From NCBI GenBank assembly GCA_045643205.1, contig JAZUKI010000006.1, forward strand, positions 39,595 to 103,594: 64,000 nt of DNA, read 5' to 3'. The notes below the pieces were generated by a model, which saw nothing but the letters and a program-made list of their open reading frames with translations, made no database searches and was not told the DNA's origin. A program made the position numbers and the translations under genes. This DNA is from Clostridia bacterium. GTDB taxonomy: Bacteria; Bacillota; Clostridia; TANB77; CAG-508. This document shows, piece after piece, positions 1-41,596 of the stretch (its first letter is position 1; every line of letters starts with the position of its first letter).

Positions 1-911
1 TACATTATTGCTTTAATTCCATAATCATCTGTTGCAGTTATTTTAATAGTCTTTTGTACTGCAGTAACTTCAACTTTTGGTTTAGTTTGATCTGCATTTG
101 TATTAATATATGTTTTTGTATATGTATGTTCTGTTTCATAGCAGTCATAAACTCTCACTGTTAAAACAGGATTTCCATATGGTATTTCAACTGTCTTTTT
201 AAAATTATTTCTTCCATCTCCAGAAATATATGAAGAACCATTATTGTCCCAACTATATATAACTTTAGAAATAGGATTGTTAGCATTAAATGTTAAAGTT
301 ACTTCTGCATTCATTTGCAATGCGTGTACTTCAACTGTATCACTTTGTTTTGCCTTATTAGTAACCATTGCATATACTGATTTTCCTATCAATGTAATTG
401 CAAAAACAATTATTATCAAACAGTATATTTTTATAATTGATTTAATTTCTGCTCTTTGATTTTTTCCTCTTCGATATTCTTTTACATTAACATTATCTTC
501 AACTAAATTTTCTGCTGTTCTATCTGTTGTTTCTTCACCTAAAAAAATATTTCTTTTTGTTTCTACTATTTCTTCTTCAACTGCAGAATTATCCGTATTA
601 TTAAAACTATTTAATCCTTGATTATAAAAATCTTGTTGTGCATTTTCAAAACCATTAAATTGATTATTAAATCCATCAAATTGATTATTTTCAAAATCAT
701 TAAATTGATTATTAAATCCATCAAATTGATTATTTTCAAAACCATTAAACTGATTGTTGAATCCATCAAATTGACTATTATTAAAGCCGCCAAATGAATC
801 ATTTAATCCATTAAACTGACCATCATCAAAGCCATCAAATGGATTATTAAACTGATTATTATATGGGTTGTTGAATTGATTATTTAATTGGTTTTTCTCG
901 TTTGGATCCAT
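1..911 (-). CDS. Membrane-anchored hypothetical protein (partial, runs off window start): N/Q/F/G-rich N-terminus, one TM helix, beta-rich extracellular region
   Basis: Not in the ORF track. Manual translation from ATG 911 (AAGGAG upstream) is open to base 1: MDPNEKNQLNNQFNNPYNNQFNNPFDGF...IYCLIIIVFAITLIGKSVYAM...KVIYSWDN...IKITATDDYGI. Confidence 0.85.
   Translation of the reverse strand, partial: MDPNEKNQLNNQFNNPYNNQFNNPFDGFDDGQFNGLNDSFGGFNNSQFDGFNNQFNGFENNQFDGFNNQFNDFENNQFDGFNNQFNGFENAQQDFYNQGLNSFNNTDNSAVEEEIVETKRNIFLGEETTDRTAENLVEDNVNVKEYRRGKNQRAEIKSIIKIYCLIIIVFAITLIGKSVYAMVTNKAKQSDTVEVHALQMNAEVTLTFNANNPISKVIYSWDNNGSSYISGDGRNNFKKTVEIPYGNPVLTVRVYDCYETEHTYTKTYINTNADQTKPKVEVTAVQKTIKITATDDYGIKAIM
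643..777. repeat. Three near-identical 45-bp tandem coding repeats (FENNQFDGFNNQFNG-like units)
   Basis: Unit ttttcaaaaccattaaattgattattaaatccatcaaattgatta at 643, 688 and 733, with degenerate copies up to about 890. Confidence 0.9.
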
Positions 912-1021
912 CAAGCTTCTCCTTTATCTTTAGTAAATTGTATTAAATCTAAAATTGGTCATAATAACGCATTTTTAACATTAATATTGTATAGTAAATA
1001 ATTTTCTTTTTCAATAGAAAA

Positions 1022-1057
1022 AAGAAAACCATTTAGTGTTTTCTAAATGGTTTTCTT
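1022..1057 (-). terminator. Intrinsic terminator after the 1460-aa surface protein gene
   Basis: aagaaaaccatttag / ctaaatggttttctt inverted repeat with an A-run on the left. Confidence 0.8.
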
Positions 1058-1136: not shown

Positions 1137-4100
1137 TTATTCAATTACATATTTTTTAATTAATACTATACCTACTCCAACTATTGCTAATGCTGCAATT
1201 CCGATTAATATTATTGATTGTGCAGAACCTGTCATTACTACTAGTGCTACTGGTGCATCATCAATATCATCTTCTCCAGCTTTTCTATTGTTAGGTACTG
1301 AATCAATATCAGGTGCATCATATTTATTTTTGTCTTTGCTTATTTCTGCTGTATTAATTTTTACACCAGTATTATTTTCATCATTAATCCATGTTAATGT
1401 GATAATAACTTCAGCTGTGTCACCTGGTTTTAATAATTTATCTTTTAATTGATCTGTTGTAACTTTACCATCAACTTGTTTCCAACCTTTATTATCTTCT
1501 GGAACAAATTTTAATCCTTCAGGAATATAATCACTTAATTCTGTGCAATATCCTTCGATTTCACCTTCGTTCTTAACTCTTATTGAGTATTGGAATTTAA
1601 CAGTTGTGTTCTTTAATCTGTTATAGTCTAATTCAACTTTTACTATAGATTCTGGATCGTCTTCTGCCTTATGTCCTGTTTCCATTACTCTCTTAACGCC
1701 ATCTTCTATAACAATTGCATGTGTTACCCATTTTCTTAATGATAAATCAAAGTATAGTACTTTTACTTTTTCAATATCTTGATCATCTTCTCCTTCAATC
1801 CATTCATCTGGTGTTGAATCGATATCAGGTAAACTTGTTCTTATTTGAGCATGGTTTACTAATTCTCTGCTATTTGGTGTTGCTAATTGTGGTTCATCTA
1901 CTTTGAATGCAACTTGAACATCTTTATAATCTGGTGTTTCCATTGATTCATAATCAAAAGCTTTGATTAAAGTATCTTTTAAATAATTTGTAACTACATA
2001 TTTAGCATCACTAACTTTTGTTGTATCTTTTCCATCTTTATCTAGTAATGTCCATCCATACTTTTTGTTGATTTCATGATCTGGTAAATATGTTAATCCT
2101 TGTGGAATATCATCTTTTACTGATTCTACATATCCGTCAACATTTCCTTCGTTGTATACTCTGATTGTATATACTACTACATCTTTGTTTCCTACAACTA
2201 CTGGTTCTTTAGTATGTTTATATTCGCATGTTGTTACTTCTTTTCCATCAATTATTTTTCCGAAATTTGAAGCATCAACTACTGGAATTCTTGATTTTAT
2301 TTCTTCTGAATTTACTTTAGTAATAAATTTTCTTAATGCTAAATCAAATCTTACTACTTGTAAATCTTCGTAGTCATCATCATCTTCATATCCTTTACCA
2401 TCTCTTGATGTTCCTGGATTATAATCATCTCTTTGACCATTTGTAATATTGTCTTCTTCTGAATCAATATCTTCAAGGTCTAAATCATTTCTTGTTTCTG
2501 TAATTTCAGCAACGTTCTTTAAGCTTAATTTTGTAGCTCCTGCTTTCGCTTCAACTGTACATTCAATTTGTACATCAGCATATGATATTGTATATTCTCC
2601 ATTATTTTCTGCTAATGCTTTAAGAATTGTATCTTTTAAATATGTTGTACTAATTTCTTGTCCATTTGCTGTCCAACCATATTTTCTATTTAATTCACTA
2701 TCTTCTTTAAACTTTAATCCTACTGGTAAATAGTCAACTAATTTTGTTGCATATCCATCTACTGATCCTTCGTTATAAACTCTGATTGTATAAATTACAC
2801 TATCGCCTGTTTTAACTTGAATTGGATCTTTTGTATGGCGTTTGTATGATGTTGTTCCATTATCAAATGTCTTTGATGCATCTTCCATTTCTAATGCTTT
2901 TAAATCATCTTGTGTGATAACTGGTTCTCTGCTTTCTTTAACTTCTGATCCATTTACCTTTGTGATGAATTTCCTTAACGCTAAATCGAATTTAACAGGT
3001 TTTAGATATAAATCTTCATAATCATCATCATCTTCATATCCTTTACCATCTCTAGATGTTGCTACATTATAATTTGCTTTTTGATCATTTGTTAAATTGT
3101 TTTCTGTAGAATCTCTATCTGGTATATTTAAAGAATTTCTGCTTTCTGTAATTTCAGCAACGTTCTTTAAATGTTTTACTTGATTTGCATTTGTTGCTGT
3201 AACAACACATTCAATTTGAATATCTTTATAATCAATTGTATTTGTTGTTGGATTAAATGCATTAATCATTGTGTTATTTAAATATGTTGTACTGATTTCT
3301 TGTCCATCAGCTACCCAACCATATTGTGAATTTATTTCGCTATCAGCTTTTAATTGTAATCCTTCTGGTAAGTAATCAACAACTTTTGTTGCATATCCGT
3401 CTACTGATCCTTCGTTGTAAATTCTTATTGTATATAAAACAACGTCATTTGTTTCAACTGCTAATGGATCTTTTGTATGGCGTTTATATGATGTTGTTCC
3501 ATTATCTAATGTTTTTGTAGCATCTTCATTTGCTAATGCTGTCAAGTCTGCAGTAGTAATATTTGGTGTTCTATTAACTGTTACATTTGATCCATTTACT
3601 TTTGTGATGAACTTTCTTAACGCTAAGTCAAAATGTTTTGGATTTAGATATAAAGGTTCATAGTCATCATCATCTTCATATCCTTTACCATTTGTTGAAG
3701 TTCCTGGTTCATATTTATTAATTTGTGTTGTTGTTAAGTTGTTCTCTGTAGAATCTCTATCTGCTACTCCGTATTCGTTAGTTGCTCCTGTGATTTCAGC
3801 AACGTTAATTAAGTTTACTTTTGATTCTTTGTAATCTGCTGTAACTGTGCATTCAATTCTAACTAATTTTGAATCGATTGTTGTATTTGTTAATTTATTA
3901 ATTGTTTGTTCTGCTAAGTGCGTTGTTTTAACTGTTCTTCCATCTGCACTTGCAGTCCATCCATATGTGTTATTAATTGAGCTGTTTGGTGTCAATGTTA
4001 AACCTGCTGGTAAGTAATCTGTAATTTCTGTACATTTACCATTTACATTTCCTTCGTTGTAAATTCTAATATCATAAATTACTTTATCACCTGTTTTAAC

Positions 4101-5519
4101 TTCTAATGGTGTTTTTATATGAGTTTTTCTTGCTGTTGTTTTTGCTGTTTTTGGTTCTTTATCAGAATTGAAGTATCCATTTTCGTTATATAAATTTACA
4201 ATTTCTTGTGCTGTAATGTTTGGTACTCTATTTGTTATTTCTGTGCTATTAATTTTTGTTATATATTTTCTTAATGCTAAATCAAATTTTCTATCTGGAG
4301 TAAATGAAACACTATCGCTAAATTGTTCATTTGTTGGTACTTCTTCTATTTCAACTAAAGGTTGATTAACATTTAATGCATTTGCTCCAACTGTTAAACA
4401 ATTTATGTTTTTCTTTATTCTTCTTGTATTTACTGTAAATGTTATTGTTTCAAGTGGAAATGATTCTGGAATTTGAATATAAAATGGTTGTCCATTTGTT
4501 GCTTTTATTTTTTCAGTAAGATCGCTTCCTCTATATTCAGTTGTTTTATCTGCTTTTAATATTTTATATTCATAGCTTTCAAAATTTGATCCTATACCTG
4601 TTATACTAGCATTTTCACCAAGTTTAAATGTATAAGGTCCAACTAAAATCTTATCACCTTGTTTTGTTGCTGTTCTATTTGATTTATCAAATTTACTTGC
4701 TCTTGCATCTGAGTTATATGTTTTAGGGTCAGTATTTTGATTTGCAATACCATAGTCTACTAATCTAATGAATAAGTATTCTGCTGGTTGATAATATTCA
4801 CCATAATATGAATATGTATGTGCCCCAGTTGATTTTGTTGATAAATCAACAAATCCTGAATCTGTTGTAGAATATTTAAATGATGGTTCATATCCGTTGT
4901 CAAAATCAAAAATTGGATGATGTTCTCCATTTGGGTTTGTAAAATACCAAAGAGCAGCTTGTTGTACAGCTTCAATAATGTCTTGTTGATATCCTGTTTT
5001 TCCAATTAAAGCGTAATCATTGAAATCGCTATATTTTACTCTGCCATCTGTTACTTTAGCTAACATTGTATTAACTGCTTCTTCATAATTTGTAGATCCT
5101 ATATATGATTCTTTTTCTGCAAATACATCAAGTAATGCAACTGCTGAATTATATGTTGCAGTTGTAGGAGGTACCGCACTAATATATGCTGCTGGGATTT
5201 GATCTCTACCCTGAAGTAAATCCATCGAATTTACATATGTTGTAGCTACTGCAGTATTTTGACTACCAAATCCTGCTCCTGCTTTGAAACAGTATATTGG
5301 ATTTAGATTGCCATAATATCCGCCTAAATCTTCAACAATTTTAATTATTCTTTCTGTTCCGCCATTAGCTACGATTGCATAGTATCCTGATGGTCTTCCA
5401 TTTCCATTATTGTAAGTTGAAAAAGTTCTAGAGATAGTTGCTGCTAGAATACTATTACTTACTAAAAATGTAATTACCATAACTGCTATTGCAATTAATA
5501 TTTTACTAACTTTTTTCAT
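1137..5519 (-). CDS. Surface adhesin: signal peptide, Cys-Gln thioester (TED/TQXA-type) domain, five DUF11-like repeats, C-terminal sorting signal and TM
   Basis: IYCF (Cys77), QQAALW (186-191), NQPLV (Gln386); five repeats FDLxLRK...YxIRxxNEG...D-x-[LI]-PxGL...NxA[EQ]I...DxDS...[ED]DDxD; C-terminal VMTG, hydrophobic helix, KK. Confidence 0.85.
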   Translation of the reverse strand: MKKVSKILIAIAVMVITFLVSNSILAATISRTFSTYNNGNGRPSGYYAIVANGGTERIIKIVEDLGGYYGNLNPIYCFKAGAGFGSQNTAVATTYVNSMDLLQGRDQIPAAYISAVPPTTATYNSAVALLDVFAEKESYIGSTNYEEAVNTMLAKVTDGRVKYSDFNDYALIGKTGYQQDIIEAVQQAALWYFTNPNGEHHPIFDFDNGYEPSFKYSTTDSGFVDLSTKSTGAHTYSYYGEYYQPAEYLFIRLVDYGIANQNTDPKTYNSDARASKFDKSNRTATKQGDKILVGPYTFKLGENASITGIGSNFESYEYKILKADKTTEYRGSDLTEKIKATNGQPFYIQIPESFPLETITFTVNTRRIKKNINCLTVGANALNVNQPLVEIEEVPTNEQFSDSVSFTPDRKFDLALRKYITKINSTEITNRVPNITAQEIVNLYNENGYFNSDKEPKTAKTTARKTHIKTPLEVKTGDKVIYDIRIYNEGNVNGKCTEITDYLPAGLTLTPNSSINNTYGWTASADGRTVKTTHLAEQTINKLTNTTIDSKLVRIECTVTADYKESKVNLINVAEITGATNEYGVADRDSTENNLTTTQINKYEPGTSTNGKGYEDDDDYEPLYLNPKHFDLALRKFITKVNGSNVTVNRTPNITTADLTALANEDATKTLDNGTTSYKRHTKDPLAVETNDVVLYTIRIYNEGSVDGYATKVVDYLPEGLQLKADSEINSQYGWVADGQEISTTYLNNTMINAFNPTTNTIDYKDIQIECVVTATNANQVKHLKNVAEITESRNSLNIPDRDSTENNLTNDQKANYNVATSRDGKGYEDDDDYEDLYLKPVKFDLALRKFITKVNGSEVKESREPVITQDDLKALEMEDASKTFDNGTTSYKRHTKDPIQVKTGDSVIYTIRVYNEGSVDGYATKLVDYLPVGLKFKEDSELNRKYGWTANGQEISTTYLKDTILKALAENNGEYTISYADVQIECTVEAKAGATKLSLKNVAEITETRNDLDLEDIDSEEDNITNGQRDDYNPGTSRDGKGYEDDDDYEDLQVVRFDLALRKFITKVNSEEIKSRIPVVDASNFGKIIDGKEVTTCEYKHTKEPVVVGNKDVVVYTIRVYNEGNVDGYVESVKDDIPQGLTYLPDHEINKKYGWTLLDKDGKDTTKVSDAKYVVTNYLKDTLIKAFDYESMETPDYKDVQVAFKVDEPQLATPNSRELVNHAQIRTSLPDIDSTPDEWIEGEDDQDIEKVKVLYFDLSLRKWVTHAIVIEDGVKRVMETGHKAEDDPESIVKVELDYNRLKNTTVKFQYSIRVKNEGEIEGYCTELSDYIPEGLKFVPEDNKGWKQVDGKVTTDQLKDKLLKPGDTAEVIITLTWINDENNTGVKINTAEISKDKNKYDAPDIDSVPNNRKAGEDDIDDAPVALVVMTGSAQSIILIGIAALAIVGVGIVLIKKYVIE

Positions 5520-5636
5520 TATTTTCCTTACTCCCTTAAATTTTAATCTAATACAGGAAAATTATACCACAAAAATAGGCCTAAAAGCAAGAAATACCGC
5601 GAGTTTTATATTTCTTTTGTGTTAAGATTATTACAA

Positions 5637-5666
5637 AAAAGCAACATCATTTTAGATGTTGCTTTT
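5637..5666 (-). terminator. Intrinsic terminator after the 1251-aa paralogue
   Basis: aaaagcaacatc / gatgttgctttt hairpin. Confidence 0.75.
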
Positions 5667-5692
5667 CTTTATTTTTTTATTTTATTAAATTC

Positions 5693-8600
5693 TTATTTTT
5701 TTAAATGTTTTTTTAATAAAACGACTCCCAATGTAACTGTTAAAAGCCCTGCTATTCCAAAGATTATACAGATTGCTATAGTTTGAGCAAATCCAGACAT
5801 ATTAACCATAGCCTCGTCATAGTCATCTTCATTTTTTTCTTTGTTATTTGGTATTGAATTTATATCTGGAGTATTATGATCATTTTTAACATCGCTTATT
5901 TCAGCTATATTAGTCATTGGTTTGAAATTTAATTCAGAATTAATCCAAGTTAATACTAGGTTAACTCTTTCTTCTTTTCCTGGTTCAATTAGCTTATCTT
6001 TTAGCTTATTAGAAACAATCCTCTCACCAGAAACTCTCCATTCAGGATTATCAGCTTGGCTAAATCTTAATCCTTCTGGAACATAATCAGCTATCTCTGT
6101 TGCATATCCTGCAACTTCTCCTTCATTTTTTATGATGATTTCATATTGGAATTTAATAACTGTGTTTTTTACTCTTTCTTTATTCATTTCAATATTTACA
6201 ACCGACTTGATATCTGAAGTTTCATCAACTCCTGTAGGTTCATCCCTTTGATGACCTTCTTCAATTAAAATTGTTTTTGAAATTATATTTCTTAATTTAA
6301 AATTAAAGAATTTTATATGAATTGTTTCTTCATCTTGATCATCTTCTCCATTGTTCCATACATCAGTTGTTGAATCAATATCAGTAACATCATGGCCACT
6401 TTCATCGCTATCACTATGTATTTCAACTCTGTTTATTGCTTCACGTTGGTTTCGTGGTTCAACAACTTTAAATGTAACTTTTATTTCTTTGTACGCTGGA
6501 GTTTTATTTTCTTTATGATCAAAAGGTTCTATAGCTTTTTCACCAGATTCTTTTTCTTCATCCTTAGATAAATAGTTTGTTTGTATTGACATTGCATCTA
6601 CAGGATTTGATGTTTCTTTTCCTGAAGAATCATACATTTTCCAGTTATATGGTCTGTTTGTTTCATTATCTGGTAAAAATTCTAATCCTAAAGGTATTGA
6701 ATCTTTGATTACTTTTGCATATCCCTTTTGTGTGCCTTCGTTATAGACTCTAATTGTATATGTTACGACATCTCCTGTATAAACTTGAAGAACATCTTTC
6801 TTTTGATTATACATACAAGTTGTTATTGCTTCGTTTTTCTCATCAGCAGTTCCAAATTTTGAAATATTAACAACTGGTTCTCTATCTGTAATTGTTGTTT
6901 CATTTATTTTTGAAATAAATTGTCTTAGTGCTAAATCAAATTTTTCTAAAACAACTTTTTCAAAGTCATCGTCATCTTCTTGACCTTGATAGAAATAGTT
7001 TGTATCTGTTAAATCATCCTTATTTCCATTATTTCCTTTGTAATCACTTAATTGCTCATCTGAAGGTAATGTAACTGTTGATTGATTGTCTCTATCTGCA
7101 AGATTTTCATTGTTTTCATATTTTGTGATTTCTGCTATGATTGTAATTTTCTTTAAGGCTTCTGCAGTATTTCTAACTTTGCATCTAATTTTTATTTCTT
7201 TATAATTTAAATTGCTAGCTTTTAAATCATAAGCTTTTATTACATTTTCAGCATCATTATCTCTAGAAAGTTTTGTACTTCTAATCGTTCTTTGAGTAGC
7301 ATCGTTAGGATCTAATATCCAACCATTTTCGCCGTTATATTCATCATTGATAAATTCTAATTCACTTGGCAAATGTACTGTGATTTCTTTTGCAAAACCA
7401 TCTATCGTACCTTCGTTATAAACTCTAATTGTATAAACTACATTGCTTCCTGGTCCTACACTTACTGAACCTTTTGTTTGTTTATATTCAGCTGTTGTTT
7501 TTCCTGTTAGCAATGGATTTGTATTTACCATTGGTTCTCTATTATAGTCACCTGTATCAACTTGAGAAACAAAAGCCCTCAATGATAAATCAAAATATCT
7601 TCCTGGAATTACTAAGTTTTCGAAATCATCATCATCTTGATATCCTTTTCCTCTATCATTTGTTCCTGGATTATAATTTTTTATTTGATCTTCTGTTAGA
7701 TTGCCTGGTTTTGAATCTCTATCTTTTTGTGATGATTGAATCTCACAAACGCATTTTAAAAATACATCTGAAGATTTTGTTTGTTCATTAACTATTAATT
7801 CTATTTTAACTAAAATAAAGTTTAAGTTTGCATTTACTTTAATGCCTTGTGACGATCTGTTTCTAGTATATTCTGTAACTACAGTCTGGCTATCACCTGC
7901 AGGTGTCCAACCATATTGATTATTTATTTCACTGTTTGGTGCCAAACTAACTCCAGTTGGCAAATGTTCAACAATTGATTGTGCCGTTCCTGCGACATTT
8001 CCTTCGTTATAAATTCTTATATCTAAAACAACTCTATCATTGTTTTTTACTAATACAGGACTTTTTGTATGCTTTTTCTCTGCTGTTGTTCCGCCATCTA
8101 GAGATGCTTCGCCAATTAATAATTTATTTATCTCTTCATTTGTTATTTTAGGTTCACGTGATTCTTCAAGATTTTCTCCATTAATTGATGTAACAAATTG
8201 TCTAATAGCTAAATCAAAATTTGGCTTAGCAATTTCTTTTGAATCGCTATCCACTAAATCTACTGATTGTGTTCTTATGATAATTACTGGTGTACTATTT
8301 CTAATCGATGCGGCTGGAACTGACCAATAATTATATGTTTTAGCTGTATACTCTTGGCTTATTTCAATAGTTATATCTGATGCTGAAGTATTCATTGGAA
8401 CAGAAATATAAAATATTTTTCCTACATTTGAAGCTAACTTTATTGATGTAGTTGCTCCTTCTATAACTGTTTTAGCATCAGAAGCAAGTATTGTAGCATT
8501 AGTAATTTCAGTAGTTCCGCTTAATATTCTTCCTTCAAAAGAAGAATTGCTATAATTGTTTTTTTCAATTTTATATGGTCCTATTAAATATTTATCATCT

Positions 8601-9448
8601 TTAGTTGTTACTTGTGCATTTGATTTATCAAGTTTAAAAGGTGCTAGTGATTGCGTTTTTGTAACACTATATCTACCACTAGAAACCTCACTATTTGCTT
8701 TTTCAATTAAGTATTTAAATAATTTATTAGCAGGATCAGTTTTGTTAGTACTAAAACTATTTAAATCAACTATATTATTTCCACTTGATGAAGAATAAAA
8801 GAAACTTGTTCCTGAATTGCCATCTGTTGAAACATGATATGAATTGTTAGTTCCATTTGAGTAATACCAAATAGCTGCTTGTTGAACCATTTCTATAATA
8901 TCGCTTTTCAATGCTAATGAATTTTTACCTTGAATTGAATAAGTATCAAAATCGCTAGAACTAATTCCTGCATTACTTAATAATTGATTAACTGAATTTG
9001 AATCTTTAACATTTGCAATATTTTCTAATACCCACATCAATTTTTTATAATTGCTTGAACCTAAACTAAATGGTAAAGCTTCTGAATAAGGACTTGGAAT
9101 TGAACCAGGATCAGTGAAATCAAAATACTGATTATAGTTCTTTGCAGAATAGTCTGATGATCCATTCGCACCAAAGCCAACTCCATTGTTTAATGAGTAA
9201 ACTAAATTGTTATATCCTGAATAATCTGATGATCCTGTATAATCTGTCATATTAAGCTTAGAAACAGGCATTTTACCTGCTGCCGTTTGAACATAATAAT
9301 ATCCAGTTGATCTACCACTACCTGCATTGTATGTATTTATGTAATATCCAGGTGTTGAAATATTTGCATGGGTTTCAGCTGAACATATAAGACAAAATGA
9401 AATTAAAATAATTAAAAATTTAATAATCTTTTTTAGCTTTTGCATCAA
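5693..9448 (-). CDS. Paralogous surface protein: degenerate thioester-type domain, four DUF11-like repeats, C-terminal TM
   Basis: Colinear with 1137..5519 (GRSTGYY, VYSL..GVGFG, QQAAIW, LIGPY, FDLxxR, YNEG, DDDDFE); C-terminal NMSG, TM, KKHLKK. Confidence 0.85.
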   Translation of the reverse strand: MMQKLKKIIKFLIILISFCLICSAETHANISTPGYYINTYNAGSGRSTGYYYVQTAAGKMPVSKLNMTDYTGSSDYSGYNNLVYSLNNGVGFGANGSSDYSAKNYNQYFDFTDPGSIPSPYSEALPFSLGSSNYKKLMWVLENIANVKDSNSVNQLLSNAGISSSDFDTYSIQGKNSLALKSDIIEMVQQAAIWYYSNGTNNSYHVSTDGNSGTSFFYSSSSGNNIVDLNSFSTNKTDPANKLFKYLIEKANSEVSSGRYSVTKTQSLAPFKLDKSNAQVTTKDDKYLIGPYKIEKNNYSNSSFEGRILSGTTEITNATILASDAKTVIEGATTSIKLASNVGKIFYISVPMNTSASDITIEISQEYTAKTYNYWSVPAASIRNSTPVIIIRTQSVDLVDSDSKEIAKPNFDLAIRQFVTSINGENLEESREPKITNEEINKLLIGEASLDGGTTAEKKHTKSPVLVKNNDRVVLDIRIYNEGNVAGTAQSIVEHLPTGVSLAPNSEINNQYGWTPAGDSQTVVTEYTRNRSSQGIKVNANLNFILVKIELIVNEQTKSSDVFLKCVCEIQSSQKDRDSKPGNLTEDQIKNYNPGTNDRGKGYQDDDDFENLVIPGRYFDLSLRAFVSQVDTGDYNREPMVNTNPLLTGKTTAEYKQTKGSVSVGPGSNVVYTIRVYNEGTIDGFAKEITVHLPSELEFINDEYNGENGWILDPNDATQRTIRSTKLSRDNDAENVIKAYDLKASNLNYKEIKIRCKVRNTAEALKKITIIAEITKYENNENLADRDNQSTVTLPSDEQLSDYKGNNGNKDDLTDTNYFYQGQEDDDDFEKVVLEKFDLALRQFISKINETTITDREPVVNISKFGTADEKNEAITTCMYNQKKDVLQVYTGDVVTYTIRVYNEGTQKGYAKVIKDSIPLGLEFLPDNETNRPYNWKMYDSSGKETSNPVDAMSIQTNYLSKDEEKESGEKAIEPFDHKENKTPAYKEIKVTFKVVEPRNQREAINRVEIHSDSDESGHDVTDIDSTTDVWNNGEDDQDEETIHIKFFNFKLRNIISKTILIEEGHQRDEPTGVDETSDIKSVVNIEMNKERVKNTVIKFQYEIIIKNEGEVAGYATEIADYVPEGLRFSQADNPEWRVSGERIVSNKLKDKLIEPGKEERVNLVLTWINSELNFKPMTNIAEISDVKNDHNTPDINSIPNNKEKNEDDYDEAMVNMSGFAQTIAICIIFGIAGLLTVTLGVVLLKKHLKK

Positions 9449-9700
9449 TTAACTCCGTGAATCCTTTGTATATTAAGTGTTTTGCACATTAAAAATTGCA
9501 AAACAATATCTAATCGTTTTTGCAAATTAAAATAAAATTTACATGACTAAATGATAACAAAACTACAATTTAATGTCAACAAAATTACGTGCTTGTAACT
9601 TAATTTTCCCTAAGGCTACAGGCATTTTTATTTTTGAATTTTATAACTCACTTTTACCAACACTTTCAACGATTTTTATTATATAAATTCAATAATTCTA

Positions 9701-10131: not shown

Positions 10132-11070
10132 TTAAATATATTTAGCAAATATTGATTCTAATCCTGCTTCAACATTAAACATGAATTTAACTTGTTGCTC
10201 TCCATTTTTATCTACTATATATCCAGTAGCTCCTCCTGATGTAACTTTAATTTTTATTCCATTACTTAATTCAACTGTGTATGTAATTTTTTCATTTGAA
10301 AGATCAACAACTGTACCATTTAGTTTTACAAAACTAGCTAAAGTACAAATTGTTCTTAGTTCATTTGCATCTACAGTAGTTACAGATCCTTTATTATTAG
10401 TAATGACAGCTGATTTAACTTCTTCTGCATTAATTGCACTTACTTTCTTTTGTGCTTCTGCATTAACGATTTCTCCAACTTTTTTTAATAGCTCATCTGA
10501 TAAAACTACAGCCATGTTCTTATCATCATGATTATATAATGCATTCTTATCTGAAAAATTAATTTTTTTATTTCCATTAATTACAATTTGTGTGTTGTAA
10601 TATGATGCACTATTTTCATCCATTGCTTTTTCATTTTTATCTAATTGATTACTTTCAATCAAATTTGCTAAAGAACTTAAATTTTCATCCTTGCAATCAA
10701 TCTCTAAAACTTCAATAAATTTCATTTGATCTGCAAGTGAAACATCATATCCATATGCATATCTTATTTTTATAGATTTAATTATTGCCTCATTTGCTTT
10801 GTTAGTTAATACTCCTGGTATAGAATTAACTAATTCTTGTAATTGTTGACTTGGTGTTGCATTTGGATCAACAATAGTATTATCTTCACTTGTATTTGTT
10901 TCATTTATTGTATTTTCTTCAATAGTATTTATACTATTTCCATTATTTTCATTTTCTTTATTGCTATTTTCTTTCATTAAATTAACTGCTATTGCTACTC
11001 CAATAATCCCTGCTATAACTACTATTATTAAAATAGTTATTATCACAATATCTGTTTTCTTTAACTTCAT
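10132..11070 (-). CDS. Hypothetical membrane-anchored protein (N-terminal TM, N/E-rich linker)
   Basis: 312-aa ORF with hydrophobic residues about 8-31, directly downstream of clpC. Confidence 0.8.
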   Translation of the reverse strand: MKLKKTDIVIITILIIVVIAGIIGVAIAVNLMKENSNKENENNGNSINTIEENTINETNTSEDNTIVDPNATPSQQLQELVNSIPGVLTNKANEAIIKSIKIRYAYGYDVSLADQMKFIEVLEIDCKDENLSSLANLIESNQLDKNEKAMDENSASYYNTQIVINGNKKINFSDKNALYNHDDKNMAVVLSDELLKKVGEIVNAEAQKKVSAINAEEVKSAVITNNKGSVTTVDANELRTICTLASFVKLNGTVVDLSNEKITYTVELSNGIKIKVTSGGATGYIVDKNGEQQVKFMFNVEAGLESIFAKYI

Positions 11071-40846: not shown

Positions 40847-41596
40847 TTATATTTCAACACATTTAATTACTCTTCTCTTTTGTCCGTACTCTGTACAAGT
40901 AATAAGTGTTAATTCTTTCTTTCCGTTTGTCATTTGGCTTGTACATCCTAAATCAGTAGGATTAACTGTATACATATCATAAACTTTATAAACAACTTCG
41001 TTTCCGTAGTAATCTTTCAAAGTTACATTATCTCCATTTTGAGCTTGATATAATTTTCCAAACATCTTTCCACTCTTATAATTATGTCCAACTATAACAT
41101 AGTTTCCTTCAGTGTTAGGTGAAGGTCCCCAAAACTTACATAGAGATATTTTTAAAGAAGCTTCTGAATCATCTGTTAATATAGGATATTTAATTCCTAA
41201 TTTAGGATATTCAAAAATTGCTTCACTCTCATAAGACTTTCCGTTGCTTGCTTCAACAGATGATGTTGCAGATTGTGTATTTCCTGTTGGTTCTGGCTGT
41301 GGTGTTTGATTTTGAACTAATGAAAGATTAGTATCTTCCACATTATCTTCATCTAAAGAAATTACTAAAGGTTTTCTTGCTGTTGTATCATCCTCACCAA
41401 CAAGTTGTTGTATTTGCATTCCAATTTCTTGTCCAATAGCTTCTTGGTCATTTCTATCTTTTTCAGCTAAAACATAATAAGTTAGAAGAACAACTATAAC
41501 AAATAATGAAAAGAAATATAATGCTCTATATATTCTTTTTTTACGTTTCATTTCTTTTGTCACATATATTTTGTCAGAAACAAGTATTTGATTCAT
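40847..41596 (-). CDS. Sortase
   Basis: TM anchor, GNYVIVGHN (His), LTLITC (Cys), downstream Arg. Confidence 0.92.
   Translation of the reverse strand: MNQILVSDKIYVTKEMKRKKRIYRALYFFSLFVIVVLLTYYVLAEKDRNDQEAIGQEIGMQIQQLVGEDDTTARKPLVISLDEDNVEDTNLSLVQNQTPQPEPTGNTQSATSSVEASNGKSYESEAIFEYPKLGIKYPILTDDSEASLKISLCKFWGPSPNTEGNYVIVGHNYKSGKMFGKLYQAQNGDNVTLKDYYGNEVVYKVYDMYTVNPTDLGCTSQMTNGKKELTLITCTEYGQKRRVIKCVEI

Follow-up and report, generated by a model that had tools for sequence, protein, structure and literature searches.

Isopeptide and thioester bonds are thought to let the adhesins of Gram-positive bacteria hold under force, a view that is based on single engineered mutants. We describe here two adjacent genes, A and B, of an uncultured gut Clostridia bacterium (GenBank assembly GCA_045643205.1, contig JAZUKI010000006.1, positions 39,595 to 103,594; this stretch of 64,000 nucleotides is the window, to which coordinates below refer unless another locus is named). 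Each gene encodes a large surface protein with a predicted thioester domain (TED) as its head and a stalk of tandem repeats. A has the residues that both kinds of bond require; B has neither set, and belongs to an old, selectively maintained lineage of such bond-free proteins. The pair is a natural test of what the bonds are for. In our view B probably works as an adhesin that binds non-covalently and has an unlocked stalk, the locks having gone unmaintained once the covalent tip was lost.

Described systems closest to A and B

The nearest relatives in architecture are the TIE proteins with class II TEDs, namely BaTIE (6FWV), EfmTIE86 (TED structure 6FWY) and TIEpLS20. In these, as is predicted for A and B, a stalk of Ig-like isopeptide domains bears an N-terminal TED head that includes a beta-sandwich insert and a return hairpin. 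The bond-forming Gln of class II TEDs is placed on the strand that returns to the head after the insert, and the Gln of the TQxxPhiW motif is not the partner of the Cys (PMC6194298). In the portion of that paper available to us, the Cys and Gln that form the bond are called the only universally conserved TED residues; B lacks both. The TIE stalk used for comparison is of the CnaB type, whereas the repeats of A and B are CnaA-like and belong to DUF11, since renamed CLIPPER. The CLIPPER structure 9IFR has a Lys715-Asn806 isopeptide bond with Asp748, and its K715A mutant still folds but is less stable to heat and to proteases; some DUF11 domains are without the isopeptide signature (PMC12617251). 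Both domain families, and this occasional absence of the signature, are already known. The accessible part of the same survey describes no loss coordinated with that of a thioester.

The literature within our coverage, which leaves subscription papers outside, describes no maintained TED lineage without Cys and Gln and no complete association of such a loss with unlocked stalks, nor an all-or-none pattern of bonds or side-by-side pairing with a bonded copy. The engineered mutants SfbI-TED Q261A and C109A, TIEpLS20 C68S and CLIPPER K715A have natural equivalents in B, where the Cys has become Ser and both the Gln and the repeat Lys are replaced. Each mutant carries one change made in the laboratory, and most have lost function, whereas B has all of the changes together and is maintained by selection. 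As an evolutionary analogy only, the thioester-less members of the alpha-2-macroglobulin/complement superfamily (bacterial type II A2M, insect Mcr) are reported as paralogues that function without the thioester (PMC5764988, PMC12254109, in the sections open to us); the fold and system of that superfamily are unrelated to A and B.

Bond-forming residues in A and B

The two genes and the parts that bear on the bonds are as follows.

1137..5519, minus strand: gene A, encoding a 1460-aa TIE-type adhesin (open reading frame and translation) predicted to consist of signal peptide, class II TED head, a stalk of five CLIPPER/DUF11 repeats and a membrane anchor at the C-terminus; every cross-link residue present
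4305..5444, minus strand: A residues 26-405, predicted class II TED head with beta-sandwich insert (model and fold matches)
5289-5291, minus strand: codon of A Cys77 (codon checked)
4362-4364, minus strand: codon of A Gln386 (codon checked)
1245..4298, minus strand: A residues 408-1425, five CLIPPER/DUF11 stalk repeats (repeat alignment; Lys codons checked)
5693..9448, minus strand: gene B, encoding a 1251-aa paralogue of A-like architecture with four repeats, lacking the thioester pair and the repeat Lys
8234..9361, minus strand: B residues 30-405, predicted TED-like head with sandwich, QQAAIW retained (model and fold matches)
9194-9196, minus strand: codon of B Ser85 (codon checked)
8291-8293, minus strand: codon of B Thr386 (codon checked)
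5801..8230, minus strand: B residues 407-1216, four CLIPPER-like repeats with broken triads and retained acidic loops (repeat alignment, model)

B is 1251 aa long if read from the TTG at 9448; a start at the next codon downstream, an ATG, gives 1250 aa. The two proteins are 40% identical over 873 aa and 32% end to end, and the 3' ends of their genes are only 47-48% identical, so that B has been spared recent conversion. Each protein begins with a stretch that resembles a signal peptide, followed by a head of some 380 aa and by tandem repeats of 170-220 aa, and ends in a hydrophobic helix with a Lys-rich tail.

In the head of A we read IYC77F(K), QQAALW at residues 186-191 and NQ386PLV; the corresponding positions of B read VYS85L(N), QQAAIW at 189-194 and NST386PV. 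The [YFL]C-Phi-zeta motif with its bond-forming Cys is thus present in A (IYC77FK) and absent from B (VYS85LN), while the TQxxPhiW motif occurs in both in a version that begins with Gln rather than Thr and keeps the motif Gln and Trp. A shares with the class II TEDs of TIE proteins the [YFL]C motif, a QQxxPhiW version of the second motif and a conserved Gln that is predicted to stand after the insert. Cys77 and Gln386 are 309 residues apart. Gln386, residue 361 of the model, lies just before the long return strand and hairpin, and the residue after it is an invariant Pro. Since the Gln of class II TEDs lies after the insert, and Gln386 stands before the return strand, a Cys77-Gln386 pairing in A is plausible; the preliminary description of this DNA had also taken Gln386 as the thioester Gln, which fits the available text of PMC6194298. 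To assign the Gln of QQAALW as thioester partner would be wrong, as that paper puts the bond-forming Gln after the insert.

In the stalk of A, the Lys of the FDLxLRK motif recurs at residues 418, 636, 850, 1064 and 1263, with the Asp in D-x-[LI]-P and the Asn in N-x-A, so that the repeat alignment has a complete Lys/Asp/Asn triad in five of five repeats, in the same order as Lys715/Asp748/Asn806 of 9IFR. The Lys positions of B hold Gln417, Ala625, Gln843 and Asn1054. Its aligned triads are Q417/E494/C566 in repeat 1, A625/V691/I770 in repeat 2, Q843/D916/N1006 in repeat 3 and N1054/D1121/N1180 in repeat 4. None of the four is intact, the Asp and Asn sites being replaced in repeats 1-2 and retained in repeats 3-4. 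The NEG motifs and the acidic loops between repeats are retained in B. The preliminary description had claimed just this contrast, namely that A carries the cross-link residues and B has lost all of them, with the Asp and Asn partners also lost in repeats 1-2, while the fold motifs and reading frame of B stay intact. Every motif it quoted is found at the residue given, and all of these claims stand.

A has what a Cys77-Gln386 thioester, and a Lys-Asn isopeptide bond with a catalytic Asp in each of the five repeats, would require. Without its bond-forming pairs, B should be unable to make either kind of bond. Judged from its residues, B is a CLIPPER-fold protein and not an isopeptide-domain protein.

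Domain profiles and predicted folds

Profile searches give Pfam DUF11 (PF01345) in both proteins (A 92.6 bits, B 58.3 bits, cut-off 24.6), as well as the NCBIfam model TIGR01451 (A 108.1 bits, B 71.1 bits). Pfam TED matches B (33.8 bits, cut-off 22) and does not match A at E <= 0.01. Sequence searches of solved structures with the A head, the A stalk and a 42-sequence profile gave no meaningful match; only fold comparison tied A and B to TEDs and to 9IFR. For this comparison, AlphaFold2 (AF2) models were made of the head and first repeat of each protein (mean predicted local distance difference test score 88.5 for A and 89.6 for B, from one shared alignment).

The best structural matches for both models are BaTIE and EfmTIE86. 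By VIA-align, the A model matches 6fwv_B (BaTIE) with Z 13.8 (254 residues aligned, root-mean-square deviation (rmsd) 6.8) and 6fwy_A (EfmTIE86) with Z 13.3 (261 aligned, rmsd 8.6), against Z 9.5-10.4 for class I TEDs, and the TED matches span model residues 1-385, those to the two class II chains residues 4-385. The B model gives Z 14.2 and 13.3 with the same two chains. Foldseek also matches both to TEDs (E about 1e-8 for A and about 4e-9 for B, probability 1.00). For the stalk, repeat 1 of A aligns to 9IFR over 114 of 123 residues (Z 9.2, rmsd 2.8), and repeat 1 of B over 115 of 123 (Z 9.6, rmsd 2.6); integrin and pilin Ig domains score like 9IFR, and the CnaA-like Ig fold alone is not specific. 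Both models thus predict a class II TED fold with its beta-sandwich insert and return hairpin, and the assignment of TED and isopeptide-type domains in the preliminary description was right.

A and B differ from the TIE class II TEDs in having no sequence match to the solved chains, a longer insert and no LPXTG motif. Compared with 9IFR, their repeats, at about 170-220 aa, are longer, contain long inserts and are joined by acidic loops, and in B there are four repeats without a triad. The "universally conserved" Cys and Gln of TEDs are not universal, and annotation by fold or profile will label some non-covalent proteins as thioester adhesins; here, Pfam TED matches B and not A.

Distribution of bonded and bond-free proteins

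Relatives of B occur in 35 of the 36 other genomes of the genus, and none occurs in the 24 genomes taken from four further families of that order. In most species a larger paralogue stands next to a four-repeat orthologue that is about 1260 aa long and shares 41-48% identity with B, and most species carry two bonded copies. When 32 rows were scored at 16 sites, 23 kept all of them (one with Asp changed to Glu), including the orthologues that are only 41-48% identical to B. The nine rows that have lost bonds are B, its counterpart in genome G018, the database proteins P0004-P0008, and proteins of genomes G019 and G008.

We then pooled the loci of the genus with 74 loci from species-representative genomes and 78 metagenome loci, and removed exact duplicates to leave 156 unique complete proteins. 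Cys, Gln and every triad are intact in 140 of these, with all 621 of their repeats complete (606 Lys/Asp/Asn, 12 Lys/Asp/Asp, three Lys/Glu/Asn), which puts the contrast between A and B far beyond chance. A further 11 have Cys and Gln but none of their four triads intact, and five (B and the proteins of G019, G008, L154 and L203) have no Cys and no intact triad. Stalks with a mixture of intact and broken triads are absent from the 156, as are dead heads on locked stalks. The Gln386 equivalent, followed by Pro, is present in 151 of 151 Cys-bearing proteins and replaced in four of the five complete Cys-less ones. Lys/Asp/Asp repeats were counted as intact because a Lys-Asp isopeptide bond is known in domain II of BaTIE (PMC8092201); this substitution of Asp for the triad Asn occurs in one repeat of a bonded subgroup (L180, L182-L188, L178, L184, L190, L191, L167, L034/L103).

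An exhaustive search with the B head among 1.84 billion cluster representatives (50% identity) gave 146 matches, 91 of which cover both head sites. They comprise 81 with Cys/Gln, one with Cys/Asn and nine without Cys, and none of the nine Cys-less representatives has an intact triad. Among the 62 Cys/Gln representatives in which repeats were detected, every triad is intact in 60, the alignment has a gap at one Lys in another, and the last has no intact triad. A dead head on a locked stalk is thus missing from these 71 clusters as well.

Bond-free proteins, which make up nine of the 91 clusters, are all of the small four-repeat build (1119-1325 aa). Members of this bond-free clade occur in four species genomes of the genus and on two further metagenome contigs. 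The residues that replace the four Lys differ by lineage (Q,A,Q,N; Q,T,Y,M; Q,T,Y,S; Q,T,T,Q; A,Q,A,Q), and Asp or Asn is often retained at the former bond sites. The co-occurrence of A-type and B-type genes, which the preliminary description proposed as a check, holds at five of the six loci with readable context, where a fully bonded paralogue adjoins the bond-free copy (G000, the genome described here, and G018, G019, G008 and L154), and fails at the sixth, L203. In G008, contigs C10 and C13 carry one and the same adhesin pair, with identical scores and in mirrored coordinates, probably an assembly duplicate.

Selection on B and its orthologues

Close relatives of B share its losses. P0004-P0008 are 74-78% identical to the B head, and the copies in G018 and L147 are 82% and 81% identical to B; all have Ser or Ala for the Cys, Thr for the Gln, no repeat Lys and intact frames, the G018 gene being split by the contig end only. 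The Cys77 equivalent is Ser or Ala in all eight B-clade sequences that cover the site. The five unique complete bond-free proteins have intact frames of 1226-1325 aa.

We calculated dN/dS by the Nei-Gojobori method (NG86); dS is high and partly saturated, so the values are rough, yet they are far from 1. For B the ratio is 0.12 between G000 and G018 (dS 0.84), 0.15 between G000 and L147, and 0.05 between G018 and L147, while A gives 0.28 between G000 and G018. The bond-free copies of G019 and G008 give 0.22 and their bonded neighbours 0.42; six pairs of bonded small orthologues range from 0.09 to 0.29. By part, the head of B stands at 0.19 and repeats 1-4 at 0.11, with repeat 1 the most constrained (0.08). 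B is not decaying: it is under purifying selection as strong as that in its bonded relatives, and the preliminary description was correct to set decay aside.

That B might nonetheless be a decaying copy made redundant by A would account for the loss of functional residues of two chemistries at many sites, and in the trees bond-free proteins sit on longer branches than bonded ones do. Simple decay is contradicted by the intact frames of orthologues in other assemblies and by the low dN/dS of all the bond-free comparisons (0.05-0.22), and nine bond-free clusters persist at less than 50% mutual identity. We regard decay as barely tenable.

Another alternative, with which the strong constraint on repeat 1 agrees, is that B has retained or acquired a cross-link of another kind, covalent or through a metal. 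Throughout the B clade, repeat 1 has Gln417, Glu494-His495 and Cys566-x-Cys568 exactly at the Lys, Asp-Tyr and Asn-x-Ala positions of the bonded relatives:

8198-8200, 7964-7969 and 7745-7753, minus strand: codons of B repeat 1 Gln417, Glu494-His495 and Cys566-x-Cys568 (repeat alignment)

A Cys-Gln thioester or a metal site could there join the same two strands, or Ser85 of the head could form an ester. The Q/E-H/C-x-C arrangement is invariant in the four B-clade rows shown in our alignment, and Gln, Glu and Cys are found in all eight B-clade sequences scored. Thr-Gln ester cross-links with an acid-base-nucleophile triad are also known from Ig-like stalk domains (PMC10619420; 10.1101/2025.03.26.645365). 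The arrangement is nevertheless confined to one repeat of one subclade, the Cys566 site being Ala in G019 and G008 and Asn in L203 and L154. At the head, P0004-P0006 have Ala at the Ser85 site and Thr for the Gln, and PMC10619420, so far as its accessible text goes, describes thioesters in TED heads only. A replacement cross-link is therefore, in our estimation, quite improbable for B.

Evolutionary history

A full-length tree was built under a mixture model with the trait columns removed. In it the eight fully bond-free rows form one clade (Shimodaira-Hasegawa-like approximate likelihood ratio test 94) within a well-supported group that also holds bonded small proteins, while the four rows that combine a live head with an unlocked stalk group as a clade of their own (100) that is sister to bonded proteins. 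A single clade of all 12 unlocked rows was rejected (approximately unbiased (AU) test, p 0.003), for a grouping that was named after the tree had been seen. A single origin of unlocked stalks is thus rejected by both tree and test, and the stalk locks were, as these alignments have it, lost at least twice independently, the minimum on the tree being two changes. Losses of the Cys fall in one clade on the full-length tree, and number at least three by starred branches on a head-only FastTree of the cluster representatives. Among earlier trees, a FastTree grouped five bond-free rows, and a quick mixture-model tree of the head and last two repeats left them unresolved.

The preliminary description had regarded B as a twin of A, and this part of it has to be replaced. 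B is instead a member of an old, diversified, four-repeat bond-free lineage, and is not a private recent twin of A. The bonded neighbours of the bond-free genes in G000, G018, G019 and G008 form a clade of their own (97), all fully bonded, and paralogues of the family tend to group by species group (FastTree). An RpoB tree places G018 as the sister of G000 (97% identity). Next to this pair stands G034, which has a single gene, a bonded one, and G008 falls in the same clade. Simple descent along the species tree would therefore seem not to explain the bond-free gene, unless copies were lost differentially. The rpoB matches of the closely related G036:C63 and G014:C11 (loci L133 and L135) have one in-frame TAA inside the alignment.

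It had also been proposed that two independent chemistries were lost in parallel, by selection for a compliant twin. Both are indeed gone at every site of B, but the two losses are not strictly coupled, as a separate lineage (the 11 proteins above) keeps Cys and Gln without triads. The explanation itself holds that positive selection removed the bonds to give A, which is rigid and covalent, a compliant and reversibly binding complement that acts as a spring or shock absorber. The absence of mixed stalks, the repeated loss of stalk locks, the retention of the acidic loops and a constraint on bond-free copies at least as strong as on their bonded partners all agree with it. The replacing residues, which vary by lineage while Asp or Asn is often kept, fit drift after release better than directed change, and by our own uncomputed estimate neutral decay after a first hit would also look all-or-none at species-level sampling. 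Directed selection for compliance is, on this balance, a possibility that we rate as doubtful, and we prefer a relaxation of constraint on the locks. The varied replacements at the old bond sites point to relaxed constraint there, while the rest of the protein is still selected.

B as a probable non-covalent adhesin with an unlocked stalk

The reading that we favour, relaxation behind a weakest link, runs as follows. The TED head of B would still recognise a ligand, but would go no further than the first step of TED binding, which is reversible and non-covalent. Such a tip would cap the load on the stalk, so that locks would no longer pay and would not be maintained, and covalent attachment would be left to the bonded paralogue next door. 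Since both Cys and Gln are replaced, B can be expected to achieve reversible recognition at most. TED binding has been described as a two-step process of non-covalent recognition followed by acyl transfer, and SfbI-TED Q261A is reported to keep non-covalent recognition of fibrinogen (PMC13685950).

The distribution of states adds to this. The only intermediate class seen is the live tip on an unlocked stalk, never the reverse. An unlocked stalk that unfolds would leave the chain unbroken, so a covalent tip in front of it would still be useful; a non-covalent tip would release before locks matter, so locks behind it would not be maintained. The live tip on an unlocked stalk as sole intermediate would fit this simple mechanical argument, which we draw from the rupture forces of bonds and domains in general. 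The asymmetry of states, together with the all-or-none stalks, amounts to a specific claim on the mutual dependence of tip chemistry and stalk mechanics, and within one genus the family offers natural, long-maintained contrasts: fully bonded proteins, live tips on unlocked stalks, and bond-free proteins, often beside a bonded copy.

Several observations weigh against this account. The C109A mutant of SfbI-TED does not bind, and the reported cause is that the free Gln occupies the lysine pocket (PMC13685950); C68S abolishes the activity of TIEpLS20 (PMC8092201). By analogy with these mutants, a thioester-less head need not bind at all, although B, unlike C109A, also replaces the Gln to which the blocked pocket is ascribed. 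Both AF2 models come from one shared alignment, so the equal confidence of the B model is no independent evidence that B folds. The bond-free gene at L203 lacks a partner in the 1.9 kb upstream and the 3.8 kb downstream of it. Finally, the lineage with live Cys and Gln on an unlocked stalk means that locks can go while the tip stays covalent, so that in the B clade the tip need not have gone first.

B might also have no adhesive role, serving beside A as a spacer or coat protein, an immune decoy or a physical partner, with the TED head kept as a scaffold only. A bonded paralogue adjoins it at five of six loci, the B head evolves faster than the stalk (0.19 against 0.08-0.11), and archaeal sheath porins are reported among the DUF11 proteins that lack isopeptide signatures (PMC12617251). 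On the other side, the head is still under purifying selection and retains QQAAIW, A and B look like separate transcription units (see below), and most species have two bonded copies, so the pair needs no dead member. We think a non-adhesive B unlikely.

A further variant takes the bonds as kept or dropped as a set. A reactive thioester tip would make stalk locks worth keeping, and selection would have re-tuned the B lineage into reversible, extensible adhesins that give, with the covalent, rigid paralogue, a two-gear attachment. Repeat 1 of the B clade may then have swapped its isopeptide bond for a Cys566-Gln417 thioester or a Cys/Cys/His/Glu metal clamp. We hold this combination to be conceivable but rather unlikely, and keep to relaxation behind a weakest link, which we favour over directed selection for compliance.

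Expression, anchoring and genomic context

Signals around the two genes are listed below.

9551..9579, minus strand: promoter-like site for B, TTGACA, 17 nt, TATCAT, with TG (consensus match only)
5696..5800, minus strand: B C-terminal tail, VNMSGF, hydrophobic helix, then KKHLKK
5637..5666, minus strand: terminator-like hairpin between B and A, with a U-run next on the mRNA strand
5561..5590, minus strand: promoter-like site for A, TTGCTT, 18 nt, TGgTATAAT with an extended -10 (consensus match only)
1140..1244, minus strand: A C-terminal tail, VVMTGS, hydrophobic helix, then KKYVIE; predicted membrane anchor and possible non-canonical sorting signal (translation)
1022..1057, minus strand: terminator-like hairpin 3' of A (hairpin scan)
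40847-41596, minus strand: sortase gene

The hairpin between B and A has an RNA fold of -18.2 kcal/mol (z -6.6), and none of 200 shuffled sequences folds as well. The promoter-like site for B is the best match of the region (11/12); that for A scores under the -35 threshold of the scanner and was read from the sequence by eye. With this hairpin and a promoter-like site before each gene, A and B look like separate transcription units, each with its own promoter.

Both proteins are predicted to be exported by the Sec pathway and anchored by the C-terminal helix. Their tails look like sorting signals but have no LPXTG; the corresponding motifs are VVMTG in A and VNMSG in B, each followed by a hydrophobic stretch and a positively charged, Lys-rich tail. 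Other tails encoded in the genome read LPPTG, IPQTG, AVETG and ATFTG. We do not claim the sortase motif as a third covalent link lost in B, because bonded relatives do not conserve the tail Thr (of 121 tails parsed, 34 read TVALGD and three TVVAGS).

The source genome is about 1.0 Mb in 10 contigs, with 29% GC and a completeness rated at 100%. The window is chromosomal housekeeping DNA (ctsR-mcsAB-clpC, gatCAB, rpoBC, dnaB), which rules out that A and B are adhesins of a conjugative element, as in TIEpLS20.

Several neighbouring genes may be mentioned. The gene 3' of A (window 3-914, minus strand) runs past the start of the window; in full (L225:5187-6509) it encodes a 440-aa single-pass membrane protein, P0025, with a repetitive N-terminus rich in Q, N, F and G, one hydrophobic helix and weak Ig-like (Big_7) matches. 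Relatives of P0025 directly follow adhesin genes of the family in 57 loci (tblastn), loci of the unlocked-stalk lineage included, and this type of gene may be a conserved accessory of these adhesins. Just outside the window (L225:4150-5124, minus strand), directly 3' of the adhesin cluster and ahead of mraZ-mraW-ftsL, is a gene for a response-regulator/GGDEF protein. Between clpC and B lies an open reading frame of 312 aa (window 10132-11070, minus strand) with an N-terminal hydrophobic helix and no Pfam match, whose relatives occur only in the closest genomes (L147, 62%; G018, 54%).

The host organisms, uncultured gut Clostridia with genomes of about 1-1.8 Mb, devote a notable share of their coding capacity to surface proteins of this kind. 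In G000, contig C3 (L227:1477-19207, minus strand) carries three further giant surface-protein genes in tandem (1560, 2578 and 1622 aa). Two of the three proteins have SdrD_B/DUF11 matches, and the 2578-aa protein has an LPPTG tail. Together with A and B, these genes bring the DNA that codes for such surface proteins to about 25 kb of the 1.0-Mb genome.

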